Virus record (IMG/VR): IMGVR_UViG_3300011577_000001 | DNA from: a virus | Taxonomy: Duplodnaviria > Caudoviricetes | Direction: 5' to 3' (one strand) | DNA length: 64,000 nt | In this document: piece after piece, positions 15,260 through 59,170 of the stretch | How positions within the stretch are numbered: position 1 is the first letter of the stretch | How the letters are laid out: each line of letters begins with the position of its first letter | Notes under the pieces: generated by a model | Seen by the model: only the letters and a program-made list of their open reading frames with translations | The model's database searches: none | Told to the model about the DNA's origin: nothing | Made by a program: the position numbers and the translations under genes

Positions 15260-17278
15260 TTAGCGGTTCCAGGTCCCGGTGAAGGGAGAGCTGAACAGGC
15301 GCGAGCCTTGTTGCTGACCGCCACCGTAGTTGAAGAAGCCACCAACGTTGTTGGCAACCAGGTGGTTCAGGTCGTAGCCACCACGCTGAGTCAGGACGTT
15401 GTTATCGTCCAGGCCCTTGGCAGGACGCACGTTCAGACCGCAACGTACGATTGCTTCGGACAGCGCGTCCATGAAGGCGTTGTCGAACGACACGCGACGA
15501 GCGAAGCCCTTGACGTGGATTTCCGAGGCCAGGAGCTGGCGCAGGATTTCCTTGCGCTGAGCCAGGCGGATTTCCAGCGGGACCTGCACGTTGCGGTGGG
15601 TTTCTTCCCAGGCTTCGACCAGTTTCGGGTTGGTCTTGCCAGCCAGGTTGAGGATGGCCAGGTAGTCGATTTCACGCAGGTCACGACGATTGCCTTCGCG
15701 ATCGTAGTAGAAGCCCAGGTGGATGCGATCCTGATCGTCGTAGCAAACCGGCTTGGTCGCGTCGAACAGTTGCTGGAAGTGACCCATGGTCAGGTTGTTG
15801 GCCGCTTGCAGGATGGCCAGACGAGCGTTCTCGTCGCCGTTGGCGGCGGCGATGTAGGTCTGGTGAATCCAGGACAGCTCGCCAACCTCGGCGATGTCGA
15901 GGGTGAAGATCAGCTTCGGCGCGATCAGGGTGTTGATGAGCTGGCGCATTTCGTTGTCACCGAAGTCGGCGGAACGAGTCGGCAGTGCATCAGGCTTGGC
16001 GTTCGGGTCACCGGTCAGGTTGACTTCGTAGCCGACAGCACCCAGGTCTTTCAGATCGACGTCGGTAGCCTTGCCCTTGTTGGCGCGCCAGGTACCGGTG
16101 TACAGCGCGTTGCGGTTCAGACCGAAGGCGGTAGACAGGGTCAGCAGTTGCAGTTCCATGTTCACGGCGTCGGTCAGGGTGTCGACCGAGGTCATCACCA
16201 GACGCGGCTGGTACATCTGAGTCGCCATCATTTGCTGCTGGCCGAACATACCGAAGGCGTTCTGCTGCGGCTGGAAGCCCGCTTGTGCCGGTTGGTACAT
16301 CAGGTCAACGTACGCACCCACGCGGGTGAGCTGACGGGTTTGTTGCAGGCTGAACTGCGAGTCGGCTTGGGACTGCGCGGACATGGTGACGATGATGTCT
16401 TCACGTACCGGCATGCCAACCAGGTCTTCGCCGTGCTGACGAGTGAACTCGACACGCGCGCTCAGTTGGTCACCAGCGCCGACTTCGCCCAGGGTGAACG
16501 GCTCTTCGGTGCCGCCGAGCTGGTTGTCCATGATGGTGTAGCAGGCCTGGGTGCTGTTGTGCAGCAGGCGGTTGAAGCGGTTCTCGGTGCTGACTTCGGC
16601 TTCGGCCGGGATCACGATGCCACCGGCGTCGTGGACCTGAGCGTTCATGCCGTAGGTGTTGATGACGAACTGCTCCAGAACTTGCCAGTACGACTTGTTC
16701 AGGTAGATGTCACCCGGTACGATGTCGACTTCGACGGTGGTGCCGCCCAGGTTGACGCTGTTCGGGTCCAGCGGCGCACCGCTCGATTCGATCAGCATGC
16801 TGTAGACCGCGATGTGGTCTTGGCCCTGGAAGTTCTCGTGGTAGCAGACCAGGATGCTGGAGAAGGTCACCTTGGACTGGTTGTTGTCCAGTACCAGGAT
16901 GTTGAATTCCTTCTTCTGCTGTTCGGTCAGCACTTTGGCGGCGCGTTCTTTCAGACCGGTCTGGATGGTCTGCACGTCTTCGCCGGACATGTTACGAGGA
17001 ACCGGACGGCGGTGGTTGGCGTTGACGTCGAGGACCGAACGGCCACGGCTGCCGACGCGAGAGTTTTGCTGGTTCATCTGAGCACCTGCGTTGAAAGGTT
17101 GTTGCGGTTGAGCGTTACCGCCAGTCGGCTGTTGCTGACCACCGGCTGGTTGTTGTGCTTGCTGGGTCTGATCAGCACCCTGCGGATTGAGGCCTGCTTT
17201 CAGCATGGCTTCTGCCATTGCGCTGTTCGCAGGTTGGTTCGACTGGCTCTGGCCAGGTTGGTTACGTTTGACGGACAT
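15260..17278 (-). CDS. chmA: Chimallin, major phage nuclear shell protein (phiKZ gp54-like)
   Basis: Start moved to ATG 17278 (AAGGA SD). 672 aa with Q-rich N-tail, RRDLREIDYL and strongly biased codon usage; directly upstream of the gp55-like gene and preceded by an early promoter. Confidence 0.9.
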   Translation of the reverse strand: MSVKRNQPGQSQSNQPANSAMAEAMLKAGLNPQGADQTQQAQQPAGGQQQPTGGNAQPQQPFNAGAQMNQQNSRVGSRGRSVLDVNANHRRPVPRNMSGEDVQTIQTGLKERAAKVLTEQQKKEFNILVLDNNQSKVTFSSILVCYHENFQGQDHIAVYSMLIESSGAPLDPNSVNLGGTTVEVDIVPGDIYLNKSYWQVLEQFVINTYGMNAQVHDAGGIVIPAEAEVSTENRFNRLLHNSTQACYTIMDNQLGGTEEPFTLGEVGAGDQLSARVEFTRQHGEDLVGMPVREDIIVTMSAQSQADSQFSLQQTRQLTRVGAYVDLMYQPAQAGFQPQQNAFGMFGQQQMMATQMYQPRLVMTSVDTLTDAVNMELQLLTLSTAFGLNRNALYTGTWRANKGKATDVDLKDLGAVGYEVNLTGDPNAKPDALPTRSADFGDNEMRQLINTLIAPKLIFTLDIAEVGELSWIHQTYIAAANGDENARLAILQAANNLTMGHFQQLFDATKPVCYDDQDRIHLGFYYDREGNRRDLREIDYLAILNLAGKTNPKLVEAWEETHRNVQVPLEIRLAQRKEILRQLLASEIHVKGFARRVSFDNAFMDALSEAIVRCGLNVRPAKGLDDNNVLTQRGGYDLNHLVANNVGGFFNYGGGQQQGSRLFSSPFTGTWNR

Positions 17279-17358
17279 CTCGTGTTCCTTTTCATTGGGG
17301 TTGAGCACTACGACACACCATTTGCCTATGCTCTATTTATTTACATTGGGCATGGTGT

Positions 17359-24955: not shown

Positions 24956-25306
24956 TCATTTACTGAACAAGTACAACCCAGTTGTGAGGATCTCCAAACG
25001 AAGTTCTCCTTCCGGGATGTGATGGTAACCGCATGAGGTTATCAATTTGAACAAACGCTCTCGAAGTAGGTTAGACGAATCCATGTCGTGGATAGTTCTC
25101 AGAACAGGAACCGAAGTCTCCTGTTTAATGCTGAGTAGTGTACAGGATTCGATTACATCGATAACCCATGCACGTTCTATCACACCGACTGTAGTCATGA
25201 AATCGCATCCAGGAAACAGATCGCGATTCTTCGAGAGAGCCTGCACAACCTCACCATGTATCAACGGTTGTATGTTGCGATAATCCGCAACCAATTGAAG
25301 GCCCAT
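24956..25306 (-). CDS. Hypothetical protein, first gene of an early operon
   Basis: 116 aa directly downstream of the early promoter at 25333-25362. Confidence 0.6.
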   Translation of the reverse strand: MGLQLVADYRNIQPLIHGEVVQALSKNRDLFPGCDFMTTVGVIERAWVIDVIESCTLLSIKQETSVPVLRTIHDMDSSNLLRERLFKLITSCGYHHIPEGELRLEILTTGLYLFSK

Positions 25307-25332
25307 AGTTTCTTACCTTTCTGAAGGTTAGT

Positions 25333-25362
25333 CACTTGGATAATATAGGTCTAAAACTTATT
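25333..25362 (-). promoter_or_regulatory. Early promoter
   Basis: Minus strand reads TTTTAGACC-TATATTAT-CCAAGTG. Confidence 0.75.
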
Positions 25363-25454
25363 GGGATGGCGTCTATGACGCTTTCTCTATAGGATCAGGG
25401 GTATGTGTCAATTTAAACAGTCTGTTGCTTAAAACGCAAAATAGACGGCATAAA

Positions 25455-25768
25455 AGGTAAATCCCCACAACGCACCCCGCGGACACGAGGAGCGCCGTGG
25501 GGCGCCTCACCAACAACACAAGGTCCGCTTAGGAGGACGGACATGAAGCGACACCCGGATCGCTTCCCTAAACACACTCAGTCAAGGTCGGCCGCCAGAG
25601 AACCGAGAGTGTTTAAGGCTGCGGTCAAGACGCTAAATCCCGTCGATGGTTAACGGGAGGGTCTACAACAACAACTTGTGGGATTCGCCGTCCCACCAGA
25701 CCTTTTCAGTTACTTAGCACTTGCGAGGCGCTAAGTACTTCCTTACTGCCCCTGTGATGGAAGGTCTA
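25455..25768. ncRNA. Putative structured ncRNA (hairpin series with CAA-rich linkers)
   Basis: No credible ORF. Consecutive hairpins CCCCAC/GTGGGG, AAACAC/GTGTTT, TCCCGT/ACGGGA, GTGGGA/TCCCAC and TACTTAGC/GCTAAGTA. Confidence 0.5.
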
Positions 25769-25769
25769 G

Positions 25770-26095
25770 GTACACAGGAGTCCTACCCTAACACGGGTTG
25801 GATTACACGCACAAGGCGACAAGCCGCGCTCGCAGCGGCCGCCGTGCAGGTGTCAAGCAGCTTTCGCCCTTTGGGCTGTCTACACTTACAGGATGACTCG
25901 GTTCTTAGCCAAGGTCCTGATTTGGGGTTCTGTCCTGAAAGTAGTAACAGTTCCTACGACACTGGGGTTTAATCCAGGAAAGCTCAACTCAAGAGTGAGT
26001 GGGGAAGCCGAAACCTCCCAGACAGTTAATGGCCCGACGGGGTGGGGTCCTGTCCAAGGTTAGGGTAGATTAGCTCCTAACCAAGACTTTCGATA
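25770..26095 (-). ncRNA. Putative ~325 nt multibranched ncRNA
   Basis: Long-range 10 bp helix CTACCCTAAC (25783-25792) with GTTAGGGTAG (26059-26068); minus-strand UUCG and GAAA loops with G-U pairs. Confidence 0.6.
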
Positions 26096-26105
26096 CACTC
26101 ACGTT

Positions 26106-26192
26106 TGGTACCCGAAGTCGGACTCGAACCGACATGGCTCAAGGCCGTCGCATTTTAAGTGCGGTGCGTCTCACCAATTTCACCATTCGGGC
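26106..26192 (-). tRNA. tRNA-Leu(TAA)
   Basis: Cloverleaf with anticodon loop CTTAAAA, long variable arm, GTTCGAGTC and encoded CCA. Confidence 0.93.
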
Positions 26193-26277
26193 AAATGGGT
26201 GCCTTCTCTACTTTGCCAGGTAAGGGTTCTTTGTTTCCACGCGCAGATCCACTCATTGACGAGAGAAGACATTGAAA

Positions 26278-26376
26278 GGGGTCCCCTGATGGATTCGAAC
26301 CACCGACCGTCGCATCCATTCTGTCCCAGGTTTGGACCAAGATGCACAACTCTAACCGACTGAGTTTAAGGAGACC
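26278..26376 (-). ncRNA. tRNA-like RNA with extended anticodon arm and no CCA
   Basis: Acceptor GTCTCCT/AGGGGAC, D arm and T arm (GGTTCGAATCC) are present. The anticodon stem GCATC/GATGC encloses about 24 nt containing a GTCC/GGAC hairpin. Confidence 0.7.
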
Positions 26377-26453
26377 ATCAACTGAATTCCCTGGGGAACC
26401 TTAATCGACTTGGAAGCCATTCAAAGTTTGATGGGAGACTCCCCAAGGGAAAG

Positions 26454-26541
26454 TGGCGGAAGGACAGGGACTCGAACCCTGGGACCTGTTACAGTCGGCG
26501 GTTTTCAAGACCGCTGCAATACGCCGCTATGCGACCCTTCC
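26454..26541 (-). tRNA. tRNA-Ser(TGA)
   Basis: Anticodon loop CTTGAAA, long variable arm, GCCA end. Confidence 0.93.
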
Positions 26542-26547
26542 GAAAAT

Positions 26548-26848
26548 CAAGCCAGGGCTATTCCCTGGAGTCACTCCCATGGCTAGGCACCATGACCGAT
26601 TAGAGCGAGGTCCTAAGCGAAACCGATCGGCACGGTTACTCGCTTACTCTTTCGAGTACGGATGTCTAGGCGTCTCGTTGTGTGAGCAACGATCCACTCG
26701 CCCGCAGGACAGGGCCACCAGCAGGGCAGGCGCTTGGTGTTCCTTGGTCAGGCTTTCGCCCGAGACAGCAGTTTCAGCATTCCTTTCGGGATATGCTTAG
26801 TCTTCGCTTTACGACGAGGACTGTAGAACGGAAAACCAGGCATGGCTC
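26548..26848 (-). ncRNA. Putative ~300 nt structured ncRNA between two tRNA-Ser genes
   Basis: Ends pair (AGCCA..GGTTTTCC with GGAATAGCC..TGGCT); three C-GAAA-G tetraloop hairpins on the minus strand. Confidence 0.65.
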
Positions 26849-26864
26849 TCTCCTTCTTAGAAAG

Positions 26865-26952
26865 TGGCAGTAGGTGAGAGATTCGAACTCTCGTGGCTGT
26901 TACACCAACACGCTTTCCAGGCGTGCCTTTTCGACCGCTCAAGCAACCTACT
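26865..26952 (-). tRNA. tRNA-Ser(GGA)
   Basis: Anticodon loop CTGGAAA, long variable arm, GCCA end. Confidence 0.92.
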
Positions 26953-26970
26953 GTGAAAGGTAAAGCAAAG

Positions 26971-27421
26971 TTCAATCAATACCCGGTGTGTGGTATCTTT
27001 TCGTTTACAGATCTGGTGGCCCAGCCAGGATTTCGGGTTGTACCTGGAATGCTACCTTGGAGGGTAGAGTTATACCTTTCGGCGTTTTTAACTATTGGGC
27101 CTTTCTTACCACACCACTGATTGAATCCCGCGAGGGAACTTCCAAACAGATAGACAAGATTCCTTTGTAACGCGTATTGTATTCGCTCTCTTTCAAACGA
27201 GTGGCCAGGGGAGCCTTCGGACCCTACTCCCACGTGGAACCCCGGTTGGTGGGGCTGCTTTAGAGCTTTTAGCGACTGGCCTTTCTACGTTACCGCTGTC
27301 TATCAAAATCACAAGCAGTAGATTTCACCGTACCGTCGGCTGTGATGTTACTTTCTACTTGCCTAGGCTTTCGCCTTGATTCCCTGCATCCAGACTCGCG
27401 TTACTGGATACTGCTTGTGAT
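26971..27421 (-). ncRNA. Three tandem closed structured domains (putative ncRNA or ncRNAs)
   Basis: Closing helices TTCAATCA/TGATTGAA (26971-27125), GATAGACA/TGTCTATC (27149-27304) and a perfect 13 bp ATCACAAGCAGTA/TACTGCTTGTGAT (27308-27421). Confidence 0.6.
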
Positions 27422-27463
27422 CTTTGTCAACCATCTTGTCGAGGACGACAACACAGTCGAACA

Positions 27464-27539
27464 TGGCACGCACCCAGGGAGTCGAACCCCGAACCTACGG
27501 ATTTGGAATCCGTTGCTCTGCCAATTGAGCTAGGCACGT
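27464..27539 (-). tRNA. tRNA-Trp(CCA)
   Basis: 76 nt cloverleaf, anticodon loop TTCCAAA, CCA end. Confidence 0.93.
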
Positions 27540-27546
27540 GTAAAAC

Positions 27547-27622
27547 TGGTAGCACCAAGTGGGCTCGAACCACCGACCTCACCCTTATCAGGGGTGCGCT
27601 CTACCAACTGAGCTATAGCGCT
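27547..27622 (-). tRNA. tRNA-Ile(GAT)
   Basis: 76 nt cloverleaf, anticodon loop CTGATAA, CCA end. Confidence 0.95.
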
Positions 27623-27629
27623 ATGAAAC

Positions 27630-28001
27630 TTAACCGCGACGGTTATAGTTGACGCGCTGGACTTCCAGCTCGACATACAATTCCATCGGGTATTGAGAAG
27701 GCAGTTCTACCGAGACACGCGCGATGGCAGTCTCAGGGTTGACGAATACCGCAAACGGAGCATTGGCGAAGGAGCCCAACACGCCTTGCATCTGGACACC
27801 ACGCTCGGTTTCGCTCTTGATCGGGCTGGTGATGTTGCAGGCAATGTCCACACCGTCAACGGTGGTGACACGCACTGCTTTCACCGACTCGATGGAGTCA
27901 GTACTGTCGAACTCTTCGGTCTGTGTAGCAATCAGACCAAACAGGTTGACTTGGCTAACCTTGAGCGGCAAACGAACGTGGTCAACAGGATACTTGTACA
28001 T
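27630..28001 (-). CDS. Beta-rich hypothetical protein, paralog of the C-terminal domain of the upstream Tad2-like fusion
   Basis: 123 aa; aligns by eye with residues ~90-211 of the upstream ORF. Confidence 0.7.
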   Translation of the reverse strand: MYKYPVDHVRLPLKVSQVNLFGLIATQTEEFDSTDSIESVKAVRVTTVDGVDIACNITSPIKSETERGVQMQGVLGSFANAPFAVFVNPETAIARVSVELPSQYPMELYVELEVQRVNYNRRG

Positions 28002-28010
28002 GACAGCCCC

Positions 28011-28646
28011 TTATTCAGAACGACGGTTGCGTTGGCCGTACTCGATGCGAAGAACCGCGAACAGCTCAACCGAATTCTCGGCAGCAGATGAACGCGTTGG
28101 CATGCAACCCCATTTCTGGGTGTCAACTTGGATGTTGACGTGTTGCTTACCGTTGAGGCGATCCGCAAAGGTCTTCAAGCGAGTCTCAGTACGGTGTCCC
28201 GGTACTTCGACGACGTTGCTCTTGACGACCAACCCATCAGCAGTCTCCAGGTGAACGACTTCCACCGAGAAGATAGCATCAGGACCCTCCAACACGGCGC
28301 CGGTTTCACCAGCCAACGTGAAGAGGTTTTGTTCAACGCCGTTCAAAGGAACGCGCACGTCAACCTTGGCAACGTAATCCTCAGCATCAAGGACTACCCA
28401 GTCGTCGGCAAGGATGTCGGACTGAGAAGCAACCCACGGGACAAAATCACCGTTGTGCGCTTTCAGACCCAGCCAAGGTCGCAGAGTCGGTGCAGGGTCC
28501 TTACGAACGTTGAGACCAACGGTGCGAGCACCCACGTCATAATGGCCAGAGCCAACCATGACGACCCACATGCCTTTACCGTTCCAGCCTTCGCGTGTGG
28601 CGCGAGAGCCATGCTTCAAAGCCGTAAGGGCTTGACCGAACTCCAT
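28011..28646 (-). CDS. tad2: Tad2/DUF2829-like cyclic-nucleotide sponge fused to an unknown C-terminal domain
   Basis: Start moved to ATG 28646 (AGGAG SD) because the longer ORF runs into tRNA-Ser. MEFGQAL...REGWNGKGMW...PWVASQSDILADDW is the DUF2829/Tad2 signature. Confidence 0.8.
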   Translation of the reverse strand: MEFGQALTALKHGSRATREGWNGKGMWVVMVGSGHYDVGARTVGLNVRKDPAPTLRPWLGLKAHNGDFVPWVASQSDILADDWVVLDAEDYVAKVDVRVPLNGVEQNLFTLAGETGAVLEGPDAIFSVEVVHLETADGLVVKSNVVEVPGHRTETRLKTFADRLNGKQHVNIQVDTQKWGCMPTRSSAAENSVELFAVLRIEYGQRNRRSE

Positions 28647-28667
28647 GTGAAGCTCCTGTTGTGAATG

Positions 28668-28753
28668 TGGCGGTGGGCGAAGGATTCGAACCTTCGGGGC
28701 CGCAACCCTCTCCCTTAGCAAGGGAGTGCGATAGACCGCTCTGCCAGCCCACC
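28668..28753 (-). tRNA. tRNA-Ser(GCT)
   Basis: Anticodon loop TTGCTAA, long variable arm, GCCA end. Confidence 0.93.
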
Positions 28754-28776
28754 CATTTGAAAAGATGAAACGAAAT

Positions 28777-28853
28777 TGGCTGGGATAGTTGGGCTCGAAC
28801 CAACGACCTGGTGATTAACAGTCACCCGCTACTACCAACTGAGCTATATCCCA
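28777..28853 (-). tRNA. tRNA-Asn(GTT)
   Basis: Anticodon loop CTGTTAA, GCCA end. Confidence 0.94.
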
Positions 28854-29356
28854 TTATAACGAATACCAAGAGCTACCCGACGAACCGTGTCTTTACCGAT
28901 TTCAAACTCCCGAGCAATTGCTCGATAGCTCATGGTACCGACCAGTTCAAGGATAGCCTTGACTGACTCTTCATCAAGCGCAGCATGTGGGCTGTCAAAC
29001 CCTTTCTTGCCTTCATACAAACCTAAGGCTTGCGCATGATCAATATTACCTTGATGCGTTACCCACTCCAAGTTATCCCACCGGTTATTTGTCTTATCCG
29101 TGTCCTTATGGTTCACGAAGGGAAGATTCAACGGGTTAGGGACAAAAGCCTTGGCCACTTGTACATGAGCCCTTAAACAGAACGACTTACCTTTCCTTCC
29201 TCCTATCTTGGAGGCGTGAGTAAGATAGCCATTATGGTTGGGCGTCAGTGCCAAATCTTGGAACGTGCGAATGCTAAACAGTGTCCCGAAATTGCCGATC
29301 ATGAAGAGATCAGGGTAGTCAGGACATTCCGTGAAGACTTCAAATTCATACGACAT
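28844..29356 (-). mobile_element. Free-standing HNH homing endonuclease in the tRNA cluster
   Basis: VNHKDTDKTNNRWDNLEWVT...N HNH motif plus C-terminal HTH; own early promoter at 29381-29410. Confidence 0.88.
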
Positions 29357-29428
29357 GTACTACTCCAGTAAGTGTTACTTCCTGTAAGTAATATACATCT
29401 GAACTATTTTAGTCTCCTAGGAAGGAGA

Positions 29429-29505
29429 TGGCGCCTCCGAGGGAACTTGAACCGTCGACCCCCGGCGTGACAGGCCGGTGCTCTAACCAACTGAGCTACG
29501 GAAGC
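29429..29505 (-). tRNA. tRNA-Asp(GTC) with a disrupted T stem (possible pseudo-tRNA)
   Basis: Anticodon loop CTGTCAC and CCA end are normal, but T stem GACGG/TCCCT has two mismatches and two G-U pairs. Confidence 0.8.
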
Positions 29506-29699
29506 GAAAACGTCCTGAGGAAAATGGACTCTGCAATCACCCAGACTGTGCCTGTAGGTGCATCGCGTGTAGGCTCAAGGTTCATGTAGACAACCATGGG
29601 CCAAGAACAATCCTGAGCGTGTCGACCGACGTGTAGCACTCGGAAGCGCAACCCGCTAGGAGAGAGGTACTCTCGATCCTTCTCGACAAACTCTAACAT
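29496..29699 (-). CDS. Small DUF1653-like protein
   Basis: 67 aa with FRVLHVGRH, MVVY and VWV...F...F; GAGGA SD. Confidence 0.6.
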   Translation of the reverse strand: MLEFVEKDREYLSPSGLRFRVLHVGRHAQDCSWPMVVYMNLEPTRDAPTGTVWVIAESIFLRTFSLP

Positions 29700-29720
29700 T
29701 GTTCATTCCTCTAATTCGGC

Positions 29721-29950
29721 TCCGGCTTGCTTCCCACCGCTTCGGTGGTTCACTGTACAACTCACCTGTAAACCAGACGACCCGCCGGAGAGGTCTTTAA
29801 CTAACTACGTCAGCACACCTAAGGTTCCGAAGAAGGTAGGTACTTGATGTAGATCCACTGGAGTACTAGCTCTCGTCGACGTTGGCACTAACGAGATTGG
29901 GTGATCCTCCCGGCGGGGACATCCGCCGAGTTAATGCACAGTGAGCCGGA
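29721..29950. ncRNA. Putative ~230 nt structured ncRNA
   Basis: Closing pairing of TCCGGCT+TCACTGT with ACAGTGAGCCGGA; internal hairpins CTACGTCA/TGATGTAG, TCTCGT/ACGAGA and CGGCGG/CCGCCG. Confidence 0.6.
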
Positions 29951-29974
29951 TTTTCGTAACGCACAAAGGCAAAC

Positions 29975-30256
29975 GACACGGCATGGCAAAGGATCGTAAG
30001 GGTGGTCTCCCCGTAGTTCTCCCACGAGGTTAAGGGACCGCTGCGGCGCTATGCTAGATGCTTTTGTCCGCTGCGACAATCCAAGACCGTTGTTTGACAC
30101 GCCTCGCCTCATTGGGTTGGAATTCCCGAGACTTATTTTCCCTGACTGATGACGCTCTCAGCATCGACCGAGCGGGTTACTCCTTTCCAAGGGAGCACCT
30201 ATCTAAGTCTTACAAGGTAAAACCACCGTATCGCCAGCAAGGGTCGTCGCGGTGTT
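29975..30256. ncRNA. Putative ~280 nt structured ncRNA
   Basis: ORF-free, with nested pairings GACAC/GTGTT, GGTGGT/ACCACC and AGACTTA/TAAGTCT. Confidence 0.45.
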
Positions 30257-30261
30257 AAAAG

Positions 30262-30348
30262 TGGTGGTCGAAGGATGGAATTGAACCTCTAGCACAAGGC
30301 GGCGCGTTTACAGCGCGCTGACAGTAGCCATCTGTCTCTACAACGACC
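30262..30348 (-). tRNA. Atypical tRNA-Tyr(GTA)-like gene
   Basis: Anticodon arm GCGCG-CTGTAAA-CGCGC and ACCA end, but the acceptor has U-U mismatches, the D stem is 5 bp and the T stem is bulged. Confidence 0.65.
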
Positions 30349-30355
30349 GTGAAAC

Positions 30356-30486
30356 TGGTGCCCCGTTACTCTATTACGAGTGTCTGTTAGACTGACCCCG
30401 TGAGAGGGGAGTTTGGGTTTGACCGGCTCTACATTCCCACCCCGAAGGGTTCACAATGCGATCTCCGATGACCTCAGACCAGGACA
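30356..30486 (-). ncRNA. CCA-terminated non-tRNA stable-RNA candidate
   Basis: Acceptor-like stem GTCCTG/CGGGGC followed by ACCA, with CCC-TTCG-GGG and other hairpins; no D loop or TTCGA T loop. Confidence 0.6.
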
Positions 30487-30499
30487 TGAAACTAGAAGA

Positions 30500-30632
30500 T
30501 GGCCCCGCTACGTGGACTCGAACCACGGACCTCCCGCTGGCACGCGCATTCAAACGTCATCACTGCCGGAAGGGCTGCTAGCGACGTAACCGCATGTCTA
30601 ACGAGTGCTCTAACCAACTGAGCTATAGCCGG
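30500..30632 (-). ncRNA. tRNA-like RNA with a ~60 nt hairpin replacing the anticodon loop
   Basis: Canonical D arm (AGCTCAGTTGGTTAGAGCA), T arm (CGTGGTTCGAGTCCACG) and GCCA end. The anticodon stem continues through CATGCG/CGCGTG and ACGTCG/TGACGT. Confidence 0.75.
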
Positions 30633-30635
30633 GAT

Positions 30636-30872
30636 GTGAGAGAAGGCCGCTACCCCGATCTACGGGCCGTGATACTCTCGGGGACTCAGGCGAAAGGGAA
30701 CCAAAAGCCTAAGAACTGCGGTATGCAAGCGCAGTCGTCTATTACCCCAGAGTCGGGTCGCAATATCATTCGATGGTGTGTGGGGTCCGTCAAGTCTCCA
30801 CGTTCCCTCTCGGTGGCGAAACCAAGAGCGTGCTGGAACTTACCATTCAAACAAATCACGTCATTCTCTCAT
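30636..30872. ncRNA. Putative ~235 nt structured RNA at the upstream end of the tRNA cluster
   Basis: Closing helix GTGAGAGAA/TTCTCTCAT; internal ACTGCG/CGCAGT, AGGC/GCCT and GGGG/CCCC stems. Confidence 0.5.
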
Positions 30873-30950
30873 GATATCATTGAGCTATGTATTTTTTTAC
30901 TGCATTTGTAGGGACAAAAAAAAGAGGGCCCCGAAGAGCCCCGACTTTTA

Positions 30951-31349
30951 TTAAGGTATTTCAGGGAACCCAACGATCTTGAGGATCAGGTTCCGTTTGC
31001 GTCTGTACCAACCATCAGGCATCGCGGGTATTCCACGAGCTTCGGATTCTTTACGAATCTCTTCATCGGTCTTGAAGAGCAGGGGGACCGGGAAGTAGTG
31101 CCAGGCATTGGGTTGACCGTAACGCACCAAGGCGTGAGCAGCCTTGCGGCTCCACTCTTTCTCGGTGATACCTTTACGCAGTTCTTCTTTCAGTTGCTCT
31201 TGCAGTTCCTCAGGCGAGGACGGGTTGAGCAGACTGATGTAATGGGTGCTCTTCTTTTTGGATCGACGAGCAGCGTAGATAACGCCACCGAGTTCGTGGT
31301 GAACTTGGTTACCGTTACTGTAAGTGTGGGTGTAATATTCGCGAGTCAT
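30951..31349 (-). CDS. Early hypothetical protein
   Basis: 132 aa with early promoter at 31402-31432 (CATATTAC) and terminator at about 30915-30942. Confidence 0.7.
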   Translation of the reverse strand: MTREYYTHTYSNGNQVHHELGGVIYAARRSKKKSTHYISLLNPSSPEELQEQLKEELRKGITEKEWSRKAAHALVRYGQPNAWHYFPVPLLFKTDEEIRKESEARGIPAMPDGWYRRKRNLILKIVGFPEIP

Positions 31350-31483
31350 GATGAAGGTTACCTTCGAAGGCTATTAGGTTAGAGGTTTATCACCAACTAT
31401 TCACTCGGGTAATATGTATCTGAAAGTAGTTTGAATCGACCCGAATAGAATGAGTGGGTTTTCTTTATATGGGGAGTTCTTAA

Positions 31484-32101
31484 ATGAACCGGTTACAACA
31501 ATTGGTGGAGGAAGGAGAACTTTCCTATACCTACAGTCCTGAGGGCATAGACCTTCTGGATGCAGCAGGGGTTGAAGTACCCACCAAGGAGATCTTTGTT
31601 CTTCTGACTGATACCAAGACTCTCGTGAGTAAGGTCAGTCGGATGGTGACGGGTGATCCTTATAACCACGTTTCCTTAATGCTGTCCGATAACTTCGACG
31701 ACGGGATCTACACGTTCAGTCTGGGCAACGGGATCAATGGCATAAAAGGCGGGTTCATGGTGGAAGACCGTGCCAACCTTAAAGGCTCACGGTACTCCAT
31801 GTATCGCATGGCTGTCACACAGGCGGTATACGACAAGATCAAAGCGCGGGTGACAGACTACATCAATGGGGTGGAGAAAACCTCCTACAACCACCTAGGG
31901 TTGTTTAACGCGATCTTCAAGAAGAACATCTTCAAGTCAGAAGACGATCAGACATCCATCTGTTCGGAGTTCGTAGTCGAAGTCTTGAAGTTCTCCGGCG
32001 TAGAACTCTTTGCCAAAAGATTCTCCAGCTCTGTAAGGCCTTACGAGTTGATCAAGTCCAAGCTACTCAAGTTCCACAAACGCGGCGTCATAAAACCCTG
32101 A
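31484..32101 (+). CDS. Permuted papain-like NlpC/P60 (YiiX-like) enzyme
   Basis: YNHVSL (His) precedes SICSEFV (Cys), the permuted order; YN.LGL segment. Confidence 0.72.
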   Translation: MNRLQQLVEEGELSYTYSPEGIDLLDAAGVEVPTKEIFVLLTDTKTLVSKVSRMVTGDPYNHVSLMLSDNFDDGIYTFSLGNGINGIKGGFMVEDRANLKGSRYSMYRMAVTQAVYDKIKARVTDYINGVEKTSYNHLGLFNAIFKKNIFKSEDDQTSICSEFVVEVLKFSGVELFAKRFSSSVRPYELIKSKLLKFHKRGVIKP

Positions 32102-32135
32102 CTTTCCGACCTCACTTCGGTGGGGTCGGTTTATG

Positions 32136-33205
32136 ACGGCATAAAAGCTAGGCTCGAGGTTCCCTTAGGTCTGGCGCTACCAGATCCTGAAGAGTCCCTG
32201 CGGCTTCGCTTTTATGTTTCTTACTTTCAGATAACGACGTAAGTTCGACGAGTCTGGATTCAAGTCCGCATTGGTAGCAAGCCCAACGTCAGTCGACTAA
32301 CCCAAATCTGCCTCCCCGTATCGCCCCGGTATCACACAGACACCAATTCCTGAAACGGCTTTATTTGCTCGTCACTTCCAGCCCCACGATAGTTTAATAG
32401 ACCAGAAGCGCCCACCGGTACCGACAACCGGCGCTACTCCCATGTCTACATGCCTTCGCAGTAGAAAGCGCAAGGGTCCTGATTGTTGTTTGCCGGAACT
32501 CCCCTCTGTACCCGGCCACAAACTGATGACGAGCTGTCGCATCAGTCCATGAAGTACGAATACTCGTACCAGGCTAAGAATCCCCAACCAGAACCACATC
32601 TTCAACACATTCGTCACGGTGTTGCGCGTTGACCGTCGGATTCCCGATTCATCTAATTAGACTTTTGGTCTCCTATACCAGACACGTACCTCGAACGTAC
32701 GGTAGCGGCGACGCCGGTGCGAGACTCGGTCTCGCAGTCTTCTCATCGAACGCTGGCTCCCCCAAGAGCCAGAGCATCATGTCAACACGATCCCTCCAAA
32801 GATCACCAAGGGGAATCGTAGCCTCAGCAAACTGCCTTACTGTACCGCAAAACAGTCCAACTTGCTCGGCTGTGACATGATGCGGATTGTTGGAGCGCCA
32901 AAGTTGATCACCGTTTCCGATGAGCTGTACCTCGTGCCCCAACAACAACTGTCCAATCAACGAACCCAACCCGAGACAGCCCCCAACAATGAGAACTCTC
33001 AAATGGTCGTCCTTACTCAGCCCAAACCAATCCCCGAAGGACGATTAGCTACCATGTGGCGGCTAGGGTCGTACTTCTCTTGAGGATACGGCTCGGTCCA
33101 AGGCTTTCCTTGACAACAAACGCAATGGAACGGCGATGCAGGTGGTGTTGGCAGCATCACGATGGTGTCACATTTATCGCAAGCGTATTCCTGCATGTCG
33201 TTCTC
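32136..33205 (+). ncRNA. Putative ~1.07 kb ornate ncRNA convergent with phuZ
   Basis: No credible ORF. More than 10 helices, including the 11 bp GCATCATGTCA/TGACATGATGC; G-U pairs and C/A-rich loops favour the plus strand; TATG at 32132. Confidence 0.6.
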
Positions 33206-33208
33206 CTT

Positions 33209-34174
33209 TTACAAGACCAGGAAGTCGTTGGTGGTCTGGTCTTTCTCGGTCACGATTGCTTTGGCCGAAGCACGGCCTTCGCGACGCTCCACGAAACCTT
33301 CCACCGTACGGTTGAGGGTGTCGTAAGACTGACCCAGGAACTGGGTCGAGATCACGTAGTGCAGCTCGCTGACACCTTCGACCGGGGTCTGGAAGAAACC
33401 AGCGCAGGAGTATTCCGGCACCGGAGTTTGCAGTTGCGGTTGATCGCGGTCGGCGTACAGGCTGGCGATGGCGATCGGGTCCAGGATTTCCTTGACCTTC
33501 TCGGCGTCGCTGTAGATGTCCAGCAGGGCCAGTTGAGCTTCGACCGAAGTGGACTTGTTGAAGCGCAGCCAGTGCAGTACGTCCATGGTGTCCAGCTCGG
33601 CGTTCTGGCGAGAGGCCAGGTAGCGCAGGCAGGTGATGGCGAAGTGCAGTTGACCGTCGATGGTCGAACGGGTGGTGCCCTCGCCACTGTGGCGGTAGAA
33701 GGCAACGACCGGAACCTTGATACCGTTGGAGATCGCCGACAGCGACTTCAAGGTGTTCAGGCTGTTCTGCGCAGTGATAGTGGATTCGGCGGAACCCGCG
33801 CTGACCACGACCACGGCTTTGCCGCGCTCCAGGAGTTCGCGGACGATCAGCGGACCGATCACCGAACCCGAGCCACCCGAGGCGGAGAACACGACGATGT
33901 TGAAATCTTCTGGTGGCTGAGCCAGCAGGATTTGCTTGATGCTGTCTGCGATGGCCTGGTGGTTTTCGCGACGGACCTTACCGGAACCGTCGGTGCCTTC
34001 CAAGACGAAGATCGCTTCGGACGGGATCGAAGAATCCAGGTTGGAACGGCTGGTGTCTACGAAGGAGACCAGCGGGGTGGCGAAACCTGCGACGTCTTTC
34101 TGACCGAGGTAACGCTTGGCGATGTTGTTACCCAGACCGCCTGCGCCGTAAATACGAACTTTGCCCTGAGACAT
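33209..34174 (-). CDS. phuZ: Phage tubulin PhuZ
   Basis: GAGGLGNNI, GSGKVR, tubulin signature SGGSGSVIGP, ELDTMD and a C-terminal hydrophobic tail. Confidence 0.95.
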   Translation of the reverse strand: MSQGKVRIYGAGGLGNNIAKRYLGQKDVAGFATPLVSFVDTSRSNLDSSIPSEAIFVLEGTDGSGKVRRENHQAIADSIKQILLAQPPEDFNIVVFSASGGSGSVIGPLIVRELLERGKAVVVVSAGSAESTITAQNSLNTLKSLSAISNGIKVPVVAFYRHSGEGTTRSTIDGQLHFAITCLRYLASRQNAELDTMDVLHWLRFNKSTSVEAQLALLDIYSDAEKVKEILDPIAIASLYADRDQPQLQTPVPEYSCAGFFQTPVEGVSELHYVISTQFLGQSYDTLNRTVEGFVERREGRASAKAIVTEKDQTTNDFLVL

Positions 34175-34373
34175 GAATCTATTCCTTGCATGAAGTGACG
34201 GTTAAGTCGGTTGAACTTACTGCATAGTAATGTCGCGATTTCCAAGGCGACTGTTCAAACCAACTGAGAGCTGCATGTTCTCTCAATTCATATCACCACT
34301 AAATCTTTTTTTACGTAACCATAGGAAACGCCGGGCATTCTATGACCCATGGTTCAACTTTTCCGAGGTCATT

Positions 34374-35237: not shown

Positions 35238-36434
35238 TTACAATATTATTGGCTCTACAATCCATCGAGCCATATACGGAATTTTGGGATACTTGTCGAT
35301 CCAGCTTCTTAGTGCTGAGCGCGCCCAACCAAAGAAGCTAGCTACATCTTTCAAAGACGGATAGTAGTCTACCTGTCCGGTGTACGTATCCAAAACCTTG
35401 TAAGGTACAGCTCCCCTGGATTTGCGAATCAAGGAAGCTTGTTTCTGATCCTCGTCGTAAACGGGAAATGGGGTATCGTTATCGGGTCTCTTGAAGGAAT
35501 AACCTTTGAAAGGCAAGACGCTCCCGCCATTGATAAAAGTTCTTATTGTGTTTTCACAAACACCGGTAACCCTAACGGCTTCTTGGCCTGAGGCGAAGGT
35601 ATACTCAATTCCAGTAGGGTGATGTTTGGCGAGGATACAATCCACATATGCTTTCCTGCTGAAATACTTAACTCTAGAATCTAAAGCTTGATCAACCGTG
35701 TATGCAGGGACTTCTCGCAAATCTTTGAACCACTTAAAGGTGTAGCCCGCAACCATACTTAAATCGCATTTCTTCAAAGCGTTAAGAATGGTATTTCTAA
35801 GGACCCCTGTGAGTATCGACATGGTGCTAACATTCTCCGACACTAAACGAGTTCCCAATACGTGATCAATGGCTACTATTTTGTCCTCAGTCTTGTGAGC
35901 TGGTCTATGTTCCGACAAGTTATGGCTAAGGATAAATTTATCTTTGTACTTCGGCTTATCTGGATGTCCTAGTAGTCTCTTGATTGCTTCTGGGGTCGAC
36001 CCTAGGGCGCGAGCGGCAGCCTCCATTGAATGGAAGCTAACGACCTGTCCGGTCTCAGTATCACAGGCCGTAATTTGCAGATTGTAATTAGTCAATCCGT
36101 TTTCTAAGGCGTGCTGTACATTACCTGAACCAGTTTCCCATTCCAGATTACCAGACGCGTTGTGATACTTAACTCCGTCTTTATGGTTAACTTGGTAAAG
36201 CTTTCCATCTGACGGAGGAGGTCCGTTAAAAGCTTTACACACCAGCACATGTACCAAGCGTTTAGTGTGTCCTTCTTTTGCGGACCAAAGGTTTACTCTA
36301 CGGTAGCCATCTTCCTTTACAAAATGTTGAGATACGTCACGATAGTAACCTTTTGATTTCCAAACTCTTACATTTCCCTGGTCACTGATTTCATAGCCGG
36401 GGAAATCTTCAATGACTTTCCACTCTTCGGACAT
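35238..36434 (-). mobile_element. NUMOD4-HNH homing endonuclease with repeated C-terminal DNA-binding modules
   Basis: EWKVIEDFPGYEISDQGNVR and VNHKDG..HN...NLEW; AT-richer than flanks; own early promoter at 36460-36490. Confidence 0.88.
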
Positions 36435-54630: not shown

Positions 54631-55887
54631 ATGCTTAAGCAATACATGGAGCCTGATCAGCTCCCCACTACCAACTGGTCCATGGAGTCGATCGAAAGCC
54701 TGATCGCTTCCGGGAACGCCCAACTGGATCGCTTCGAAGCGCTCTGTGTGGCGATGGAAGAAATCGAGGACATCCACAATGACCTCCAGACCCTGATCGA
54801 AAACAACGATGCGAACCAGACCACTGCGGTCATGATTCGTGAACGTATCGAGAAGGTCGAAGACGACACCGGCATCCGTGCAGAAATCCCTGCTCTGGAA
54901 GACCATGGCGACGACATGATCGCTTACCACCAGATCTCGATGGAAGCAGTATCGGGTATCTGGAACCGCATCAAGCAAGCCTACGTCTCCGAATGGCAGA
55001 CCATGTTCGATGGCTTCTCCACCCTGTTCGGTGGCTACCGTCGTTGGGGCTTGAAGCAACAGGCTCGTCTGCACCGCCTGCGTCAAGAGTGGAAAGACAA
55101 GAAGCCAGAACTGAACGAACAACGTCACAAAGGTTCGCTCGCTGGTCAAACTGTCTACATGGCGTTCACCATCGAAGGTCGCATGTCCAAAGACCCGGTC
55201 GGCGACATGCAGAAAGACTTGGCTAACGCTAAGTACCTGACCCAGGAATATCCGAAAGCTCTGGCGATGTACCTCGAGAAAGTTCGTGGTATCATCAATG
55301 GTGGCAAGTACGACAGCGACGATGGCTTCGAGTCCTCGGTCCTGGGCAAGTTGGGCAGCCTTGAGCATCCTTCGCAAGTTCTGAAATCCCCAATCATCGG
55401 TAAAGGCAACGTCATGTTGCACAACCGTGGCCTGGAGATCAAGAAAGGTCGTTCAGTCAAGCCGGTTGGCGCGGACGAGAAATACCGCAAATTGGCAGAC
55501 CTGTCGGTTCAGACTTACGTGAAAGAGTTCATCTTCACTTGGTCCAACCTCAACGCTGGTATCATCGAGGACTTCTACCTGTCCACCGCTGATGTCGACA
55601 AGTTGCTGGATCTGTGCGACGAGTACTGCAAGTGCTTGATCAACGCGATGGAAGTATTCCGTCCGATGCAGAAAGCCATGAAAGGTCTGGCTGACTTCGC
55701 GAAGAAGAACATCGAAACTGAACGTCTGAACGGCACCAACCAGAAAGCGTTCAAACAGATGCTGTCCTTCGTGCGCGGTCTGCGTCGCTACGCCAAAACC
55801 CCGTATCGCGTAGAGATCACTCGTATCCAGGGTGTGATCATCGCGTCACGCATCATCGCCAGCCGTACTATCGCTACTGCGAAATGA
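54631..55887 (+). CDS. Internal head protein with acidic propeptide
   Basis: N-terminal acidic helical region with prohead-protease-type sites SME, ALE and SME. Confidence 0.7.
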   Translation: MLKQYMEPDQLPTTNWSMESIESLIASGNAQLDRFEALCVAMEEIEDIHNDLQTLIENNDANQTTAVMIRERIEKVEDDTGIRAEIPALEDHGDDMIAYHQISMEAVSGIWNRIKQAYVSEWQTMFDGFSTLFGGYRRWGLKQQARLHRLRQEWKDKKPELNEQRHKGSLAGQTVYMAFTIEGRMSKDPVGDMQKDLANAKYLTQEYPKALAMYLEKVRGIINGGKYDSDDGFESSVLGKLGSLEHPSQVLKSPIIGKGNVMLHNRGLEIKKGRSVKPVGADEKYRKLADLSVQTYVKEFIFTWSNLNAGIIEDFYLSTADVDKLLDLCDEYCKCLINAMEVFRPMQKAMKGLADFAKKNIETERLNGTNQKAFKQMLSFVRGLRRYAKTPYRVEITRIQGVIIASRIIASRTIATAK

Positions 55888-55932
55888 CGGCATAAAGGCA
55901 AAAAAAAAAGCAGGGGCCGAAACCCCTGCTTT

Positions 55933-56718: not shown

Positions 56719-56798
56719 ACCCAACTCAGCCAAAAAAAAAAGAGGTCAGCATAAAAGCGGTAGGGTGTTACCCCTACCGCTTGGCCTAGGCCGGGTGA

Positions 56799-59024: not shown

Positions 59025-59170
59025 TTTCTCCTCCTGAGGATAAATAGATCTCTACAACTTTGTAGCTTATCCCCTAGGTAATATGTGTCTGAAATATCTT
59101 TAGATAGAATGCGATTTAAGCGGCATAAAAGCCCTAGGGGTATAACCCCTAGGGTCTTATGACGATCGCA

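Follow-up and report, generated by a model that had tools for sequence, protein, structure and literature searches.

The window, a stretch of 64,000 nt, derives from an uncultured nucleus-forming jumbo phage, and its other genes include those for the nuclear-shell protein (chmA, about 15260..17308, minus strand), a split RNA polymerase, a DNA polymerase and a terminase. The locus described here (Table 1) is headed by phuZ, whose product matches annotated PhuZ proteins in 203 phage records by tblastn, the best match in a cultured phage being that of Xanthomonas phage LucasX (43%). Across five viral contigs, PhuZ identity is 95% and 61-64%. Read along the phuZ strand, all homologues of the locus present the same order: phuZ, an ORF of 59-64 aa with two CxxC pairs, an ORF of 105-116 aa, a stretch of ~570-650 nt lacking credible genes, and a convergent gene for a 205-aa protein.

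The interval 32136-33205 did not match cultured phages when used as a DNA query, nor did the 205-aa protein. We collected 16 distinct homologues of the locus from viral contigs, metagenome contigs and Logan assemblies; 13 distinct relatives, divided between two clades with ~65% mutual identity across the non-coding part, underlie the structure counts given below, and three further relatives joined later. A loose DNA-pattern search of the viral contigs with a 16-mer was discarded, as it returned mostly chance loci, including L012.

Table 1. Features of the phuZ locus (positions are those of the window).
Feature	Coordinates	Strand	Remarks
Candidate ACATTAC-TATG promoter	34223..34233	-	49 nt 5' of the phuZ start; predicted
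phuZ (tubulin-like, 321 aa)	33209..34174	-	first gene in the unit; tblastn matches to annotated PhuZ
Zinc-ribbon gene, 59 aa, two CxxC pairs	33017..33196	-	AAGGAG 7 nt 5' of ATG; codon-position substitutions
ORF2, 109 aa, TTG start	32673..33002	-	N-terminal pattern R-V-L-I-V-G-G-C-L-G-L-G
Hairpin H1	32677..32703	-	overlaps last ORF2 codons and stop; alignment A3 pairs 3-5/28-30 and 7-11/19-23
5' domain, three-way junction	32465..32639	-	most conserved segment; z = -7.8
ORF3, 81 aa, judged non-coding	32372..32617	-	flat codon-position substitutions; indels
Variable middle region with conserved hairpins	32233..32464	-	z = -7.3; helices 11-13 with compensatory pairs
3' domain	32140..32232	-	z = -4.5; 6 compensatory pairs versus 0.9
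Terminator tail UUUUAUGCCGUCA, probable RNA 3' end	32134..32146	-	canonical tail for this phage group
Terminator of the 205-aa gene	32106..32142	+	10-bp hairpin (32106-32129), then TTTATGACGGCAT; contains plus-strand TATG (32132-32135)
Convergent 205-aa gene	31484..32101	+	78-94% identical among relatives; weak PHROG match only; bait for fetching relatives

A sequence-only reading had described the interval after phuZ as a gene-free kilobase, yet much of it is taken up by two small genes conserved on the minus strand. By their patterns of substitution, the zinc-ribbon gene and ORF2 are real protein genes. Substitutions in the zinc-ribbon gene are distributed 18:13:36 over the codon positions in comparison with L010, with similar results for other relatives, and its ATG shares nucleotides with the phuZ stop codon in the other clade. 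The corresponding figures for ORF2 against L001 are 22:18:36, and a third-position excess is seen against close relatives. In each of the 14 homologues listed, ORF2 begins with TTG and stays open, its length being 105-116 aa except in L002 (201 aa), and its N-terminal motif survives the synonymous differences between two very divergent versions of the protein. Pfam and PHROGs searches with ORF2, the zinc-ribbon protein and the product of a gene inserted in L046 gave no significant match, and the AlphaFold model of ORF2 has a pLDDT of 44. Among the distant chimallivirus contigs examined (L061-L072), a zinc-ribbon ORF of 59-74 aa with the CxxC...CxxC pattern likewise lies directly 3' of phuZ, and members of clade C carry an extra hydrophobic ORF of 71-72 aa between this ORF and their ORF2 relative.

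The 81-aa ORF3 fares differently. Because its substitutions show no codon periodicity (15:16:14, with the same outcome in all three frames), and with its frame disrupted by indels 3' of the conserved block, we judge that it is not a gene. Thus, of the 81- and 109-aa ORFs that had been named as possible true products of the interval, the 109-aa ORF is a credible gene and the 81-aa ORF is not. The purely non-coding part amounts to about 0.5-0.57 kb, not the ~1.07 kb that had been proposed.

On the comparative evidence, this stretch of ~570 nt (32705..32134, with a closed core of 501 nt at about 32636..32136) is a conserved multi-domain structured RNA encoded on the minus strand and codirectional with phuZ, where the sequence-only reading had placed an RNA convergent with that gene. 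Its consensus fold comprises 108 pairs (alignment A3, 13 sequences). When this fold is scored on the very alignment from which it was taken, 97.9% of cells are paired across the 13 aligned relatives, a share that falls to 37-45% once the 3' partners are shifted 1-3 columns along (slid controls). Pairs changed on both sides number 26, compared with 4-9 in the slid controls, although most of these compensatory events split just the two clades, and therefore the independent events are well below 26. Some helices do vary within one clade (pairs 151-158, 152-157, 163-195 and 133-214). The observed covariation score was reached in none of 500 shuffles. In a column-shuffle test of the consensus, the non-coding part yields z = -9.2 on the minus strand versus -5.1 for the antisense, and control coding regions (600 nt of phuZ and the 205-aa gene) give z of -1.2 to -1.6 in the same test.

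Folding of single sequences points in the same direction. For 32102-32705, z is -3.6 on the minus strand versus -2.2 on the plus strand, and over the sequences folded the values are -3.6, -3.0 and -2.6 (minus) and -2.2, -2.1 and -1.4 (plus). The whole interval folds with -440 kcal/mol on the minus strand versus -357 kcal/mol on the plus strand. The dense pairing noticed at the outset is thus present beyond chance, being better than shuffles on both strands and stronger on the minus strand. G-U pairs had been taken to favour the plus strand; the helices instead hold 182 G-U cells versus 7 A-C cells in the minus-strand reading. With compensatory pairs beyond those of the controls and no coding signature in the conserved block, the element has the general attributes of a structured non-coding RNA.

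The 5' domain carries 10 compensatory pairs versus 2.7 in shuffles, and between L003 and L010 its identity reaches 93.7%, versus 41% for the adjacent ORF2. A covariance model of this domain (R1) finds a single match in the window, at 179.6 bits. The middle region is barely alignable across clades. Landmarks of the 3' domain are an invariant GUAAGAAA, a closing helix formed by CAUAAAAGC and GCUUUUAUG, an invariant GCCGCAGGG and the sequence CUCGAG. This domain is short in the window and in L046, and most relatives carry a longer variant with an extra hairpin. Its forms cut across the clades, with the window, L046 and L005 on one side and the remaining relatives on the other (alignment A6, columns 555-640).

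The helices that the sequence-only reading had named are present, and several are conserved with compensatory change. The helix formed by CATAAAAGC and GCTTTTATG changes from A-U to G-C in L002 in the fitted alignment, and does likewise in L005 and L051 when judged by eye, the rows being offset there. Both CTGATG/CATCAG with its extension and the GTACGA region are conserved with compensatory change in relatives. The CTGGCTC/GAGCCAG helix, by comparison, is confined in the alignment to the window's own clade.

Two long-range pairings may close the structure. In one, ACGG at 32636..32633 would pair with CCGU at 32139..32136 and extend the closing helix by stacking, so that a core of 501 nt is closed. 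Alternatively, CAUAGGAG at the ORF2 stop could pair with the 3' strand CUUUUAUG, in competition with CAUAAAAGC. The two arrangements are mutually exclusive, and we regard both only as candidates because the nucleotides concerned are invariant or are altered on one side only.

Structural conservation extends into the coding part of the locus. Alignments of this part have z of -6.7 (seven sequences with the window type of ORF2) and -5.9 (five sequences with the other ORF2 type). Inside ORF2, the helices GCATCATGTCA/TGACATGATGC and TGCGAGAC/GTCTCGCA show compensatory change as judged by eye, and by the same kind of inspection the 11-bp GCAUCAUGUCA helix and a hairpin at 32719-32741 in the coding half seem to keep their pairing through compensatory changes. 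Another hairpin covers the Shine-Dalgarno site and start of ORF2. Hairpin H1 contains three pairs with compensatory change, and these changes alter ORF2 amino acids; nucleotides around the ORF2 stop are conserved whether they are read as stop or as sense codons. The mRNA for the zinc-ribbon protein and ORF2 is therefore itself structurally constrained. The two versions of ORF2 do not track the RNA tree, and this, together with the 3'-domain forms that cross clades, suggests that modules are exchanged between related phages.

The probable 3' end of the RNA is marked by a terminator tail. Three related genomes of ~240 kb each contain 17-21 copies of a 13-mer, YTTTATGCCGTCA, and no copy of the reversed control; the 13-mer lies directly 3' of a GC-rich hairpin in all 20 sites printed for one of them (G001). 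We first considered this 13-mer as a promoter; because all printed sites follow hairpins, it is read here as a terminator tail. At the end of the RNA, TTTTATGCCGTCA at 32146..32134 directly follows the closing stem, in the layout of the G001 sites. L046 carries, between this tail and the terminator of the convergent gene, an extra gene (L046 3397-3873) for a 158-aa protein without a known family, and its insertion immediately after the tail fixes the 3' boundary of the RNA. The hairpin of that convergent terminator includes one compensatory pair (helix 19). Tail sites lie at 32134-32146, 55884-55896, 56742-56758 and 59116-59132 in the window and at L081-L098, often as inverted pairs that flank bidirectional terminators.

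Late promoters of phage phiKZ consist of TATG, with the G as the start site (PMC4666361). Since the tail contains this core, a combined role in termination and restart is possible, and YTTTATGCCGTCA may serve as a dual terminator-promoter signal. On the minus strand from 34233 down to the tail at 32143, the only TATG is that of the candidate promoter upstream of phuZ, apart from another at 34292, and from this distribution we infer one transcript of ~2.1 kb. A scan for sigma-70 promoters and simple terminators returned nothing useful. Some tails are followed, 30-50 nt further on, by a recurring AT-rich motif with ATATTAC at its end, of which CATATTACTC is an instance (L081, L091 and L095 of G001, and ~59060-59100 on the minus strand of the window). 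This motif is a candidate promoter of another class, and a similar ACATTAC precedes the TATG 5' of phuZ (34233).

No catalogued RNA family matches the element at the level of sequence and structure models. Rfam 15 scans of the window at the gathering threshold, and of 29400-33400 with E values up to 10, gave only tRNAs and chance-level matches, none of which falls in 32102-33208; the same search of L003, L046 and the clade-C locus L061 with E up to 1 returned nothing in the region. The group I and II intron models (RF00028 and RF00029) did not match at E up to 10. ARAGORN reports eight tRNAs, all at 26.1-29.5 kb, and no tmRNA, and RNase P and tRNA-like Rfam models have no match in the region. 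The element matches none of GOLLD, ROOL, OLE, HEARO, raiA or any other Rfam 15 family in these scans. The earlier expectation of a large, ornate RNA is borne out in that the RNA is large, conserved and multi-domain.

There is nevertheless a likeness to GOLLD and ROOL, as the RNA is several hundred nucleotides long, multi-domain, supported by covariation, phage-borne and near a large tRNA array. It differs in being the 3' part of a protein-coding operon and not a free-standing gene beside tRNAs, and neither covariance model matches it at E up to 10. GOLLD and ROOL form oligomeric cages, as determined by cryo-EM (bioRxiv 10.1101/2024.12.08.627333). Among bacterial RNAs with dual functions or carried in 3' UTRs are Staphylococcus RNAIII, which includes hld, and the small RNAs derived from 3' UTRs. 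The locus resembles these in joining a structured RNA and small protein genes in one predicted transcript, with structure that overlaps the coding sequence; it differs in its far larger non-coding part, and target pairing was not found in the leaders and related genomes that we searched. The prohead RNA (pRNA) of phage phi29, a 174-nt RNA with a packaging role, is part of a protein machine. By description, the likeness to it is that of a phage-encoded structured RNA, and nothing links the post-phuZ RNA to capsids.

We favour the view that the RNA is the 3' part of a single phuZ-operon transcript and accumulates as a stable species that binds a partner, and we consider this hypothesis probably correct. 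Under this proposal, phuZ, the zinc-ribbon gene, ORF2 and the RNA would be transcribed together as one ~2.1 kb transcript from the ATTAC-TATG site before phuZ. The RNA would then build up in stable form, whether still joined to the message as its structured 3' part or released from it by cleavage, and would bind its partner through the invariant unpaired stretches. This partner would most likely be a protein, for which the co-transcribed zinc-ribbon protein and ORF2 are the obvious candidates. Folding that reaches into the coding part would couple translation of the small genes to the fold, for example, through the hairpin over the ORF2 Shine-Dalgarno site. As regards RNA partners, the longest complement to the chmA mRNA leader is 9 nt, falls in the variable region and does not exceed the background given by 60 other leaders. 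When three related genomes were searched for complements of two invariant segments, the matches were confined to the RNA gene itself or stayed at control level.

The second-ranked explanation is that the element acts purely in cis, as an oversized structured 3' UTR that protects the message from 3' exonucleases, sets termination or, by long-range pairing, gates translation of the small genes, with no independent existence. This is possible, though we rate it as rather unlikely. The RNA does end in a canonical tail, its 3' domain occupies the place of a plain hairpin elsewhere, and it is without a separate promoter of the TATG type. Moreover, the conserved structure enters the coding part, including the hairpin on the ORF2 Shine-Dalgarno site and start, and pairing is possible between the 3' end of the RNA and nucleotides at the ORF2 stop. 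Nevertheless, plain hairpins suffice at ~20 other terminators in one related genome. Those plain terminators share with the element the same tail, and the closing stem CAUAAA/UUUAUG is common to hairpins at 55.88-55.95 kb and 59.11-59.16 kb, but each consists of a hairpin of ~20-25 nt, whereas the locus has a branched 3' domain of 77-135 nt preceded by 450 nt of conserved folded RNA. An element of 500 nt with invariant unpaired stretches, and with a 5' domain more conserved than the genes that it would serve, is beyond what stabilization needs, and in L046 a further gene follows it.

Other readings are each unlikely. Domain content that varies by clade, the spread of two 3'-domain variants over the clades, the gene inserted in L046 and the HNH endonuclease gene 2 kb away would be in keeping with a mobile RNA element (for example, a degenerate self-splicing intron) or with a signal that acts as DNA, such as a replication origin or a packaging site. 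We consider both very improbable, because even permissive searches (E up to 10) match no group I or II intron, flanking exons are absent, and the element keeps a fixed position and a single copy in the three related genomes searched. As a terminator and a convergent gene follow the RNA, there is no downstream exon and the element does not qualify as a self-splicing intron. The G-U asymmetry and compensatory pairs indicate an RNA rather than a DNA signal.

Fewer chances still are given to a late RNA of ~1.07 kb from the plus strand, with its start at the TATG of 32132-32135 and with ORF2 and the zinc-ribbon gene in antisense orientation to it. That TATG does match the phiKZ late-promoter core, and the plus strand beats shuffles (z of -2.2 for the single sequence and -5.1 for the alignment), but all strand-sensitive measures point to the minus strand, and L046 is without the plus-strand TATG. 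In addition, because this TATG lies in the tail after the terminator hairpin of the 205-aa gene, a kind of tail of which there are ~20 per related genome, it is not evidence for the transcription start that had been placed there. Least probable of all is a third small protein, either ORF3 or a read-through fusion like that of L002, as what the conserved block truly encodes: in the loci examined the block is spanned by an open frame of 72-102 aa, gene callers predict ORF3 in some contigs and L002 fuses it to ORF2 (201 aa), but codon periodicity is absent from every frame, nucleotide identity is far above amino-acid identity, frames diverge past indels, and the L002 fusion depends on a private 2-nt gap that its relatives do not share.

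The R1 model recovers one copy of the RNA in the window and one in each of the three related genomes. It has no match in Xanthomonas phages LucasX and RTH11, in which the region 3' of phuZ is densely annotated with protein genes and leaves no gap of such size, or in 19 more distant chimallivirus contigs. In a third clade (PhuZ 58-60% identical), the zinc-ribbon gene, a relative of ORF2 and the convergent gene are all present, and in the same place there is a conserved non-coding stretch with a different interior. Retained landmarks include GCCGCAG, CUCGAG, a closing stem of the form GGCAUAAA...UUUAUGCCG, and the terminator tail. By its position and these landmarks, this clade carries a diverged counterpart of the RNA.

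A more speculative extension of the partner-binding hypothesis, which we regard as doubtful, is that several lineages of nucleus-forming jumbo phages possess a fast-evolving class of large ornate RNAs partnered with phuZ and the zinc-ribbon gene, and that these RNAs form a ribonucleoprotein with the encoded proteins and act in phage cell biology. If true, such a complex may serve the spindle and nucleus or phage messages outside the nucleus, and the RNA would represent a new functional class of viral RNA and not a UTR.

Large structured RNAs with strong covariation and without known function are rare, and each new one has offered a lead into new RNA biology. In our literature searches we met with no description of a comparable RNA from nucleus-forming jumbo phages; a review mentions only that phiKZ expresses non-coding RNAs. 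The RNA reported herein has clean boundaries and is bound to a defined operon of phuZ, a widely conserved zinc-ribbon gene and ORF2, and its conserved core of 175 nt can be searched for and synthesized. The annotation of the locus is also corrected, with two small genes and one non-gene, and with the terminator signal of this phage group recognized, transcription units can be better delimited in all related metagenomic genomes.

Several features of the neighbourhood were also recorded. A gene for a 398-aa HNH/NUMOD homing-endonuclease-like protein (35238-36434, minus strand) adjoins a DUF7484 gene, 2 kb from the RNA. The interval after phuZ had been called the longest gene-poor stretch in the window, a distinction that instead belongs to an RNA island of 5.6 kb at ~25300-30950, where the eight ARAGORN tRNAs lie on the minus strand and credible ORFs are very scarce. 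A similarity of the RNA to this island was considered and dismissed, the matches being short and at chance level, as was a shared 12-mer of the GGGAGTAGGGTC type. Within the island, at 30503-30632 (minus strand) and outside the ARAGORN calls, an Rfam tRNA match of 41.2 bits extends across 130 nt and suggests a tRNA-like gene with a large insertion.
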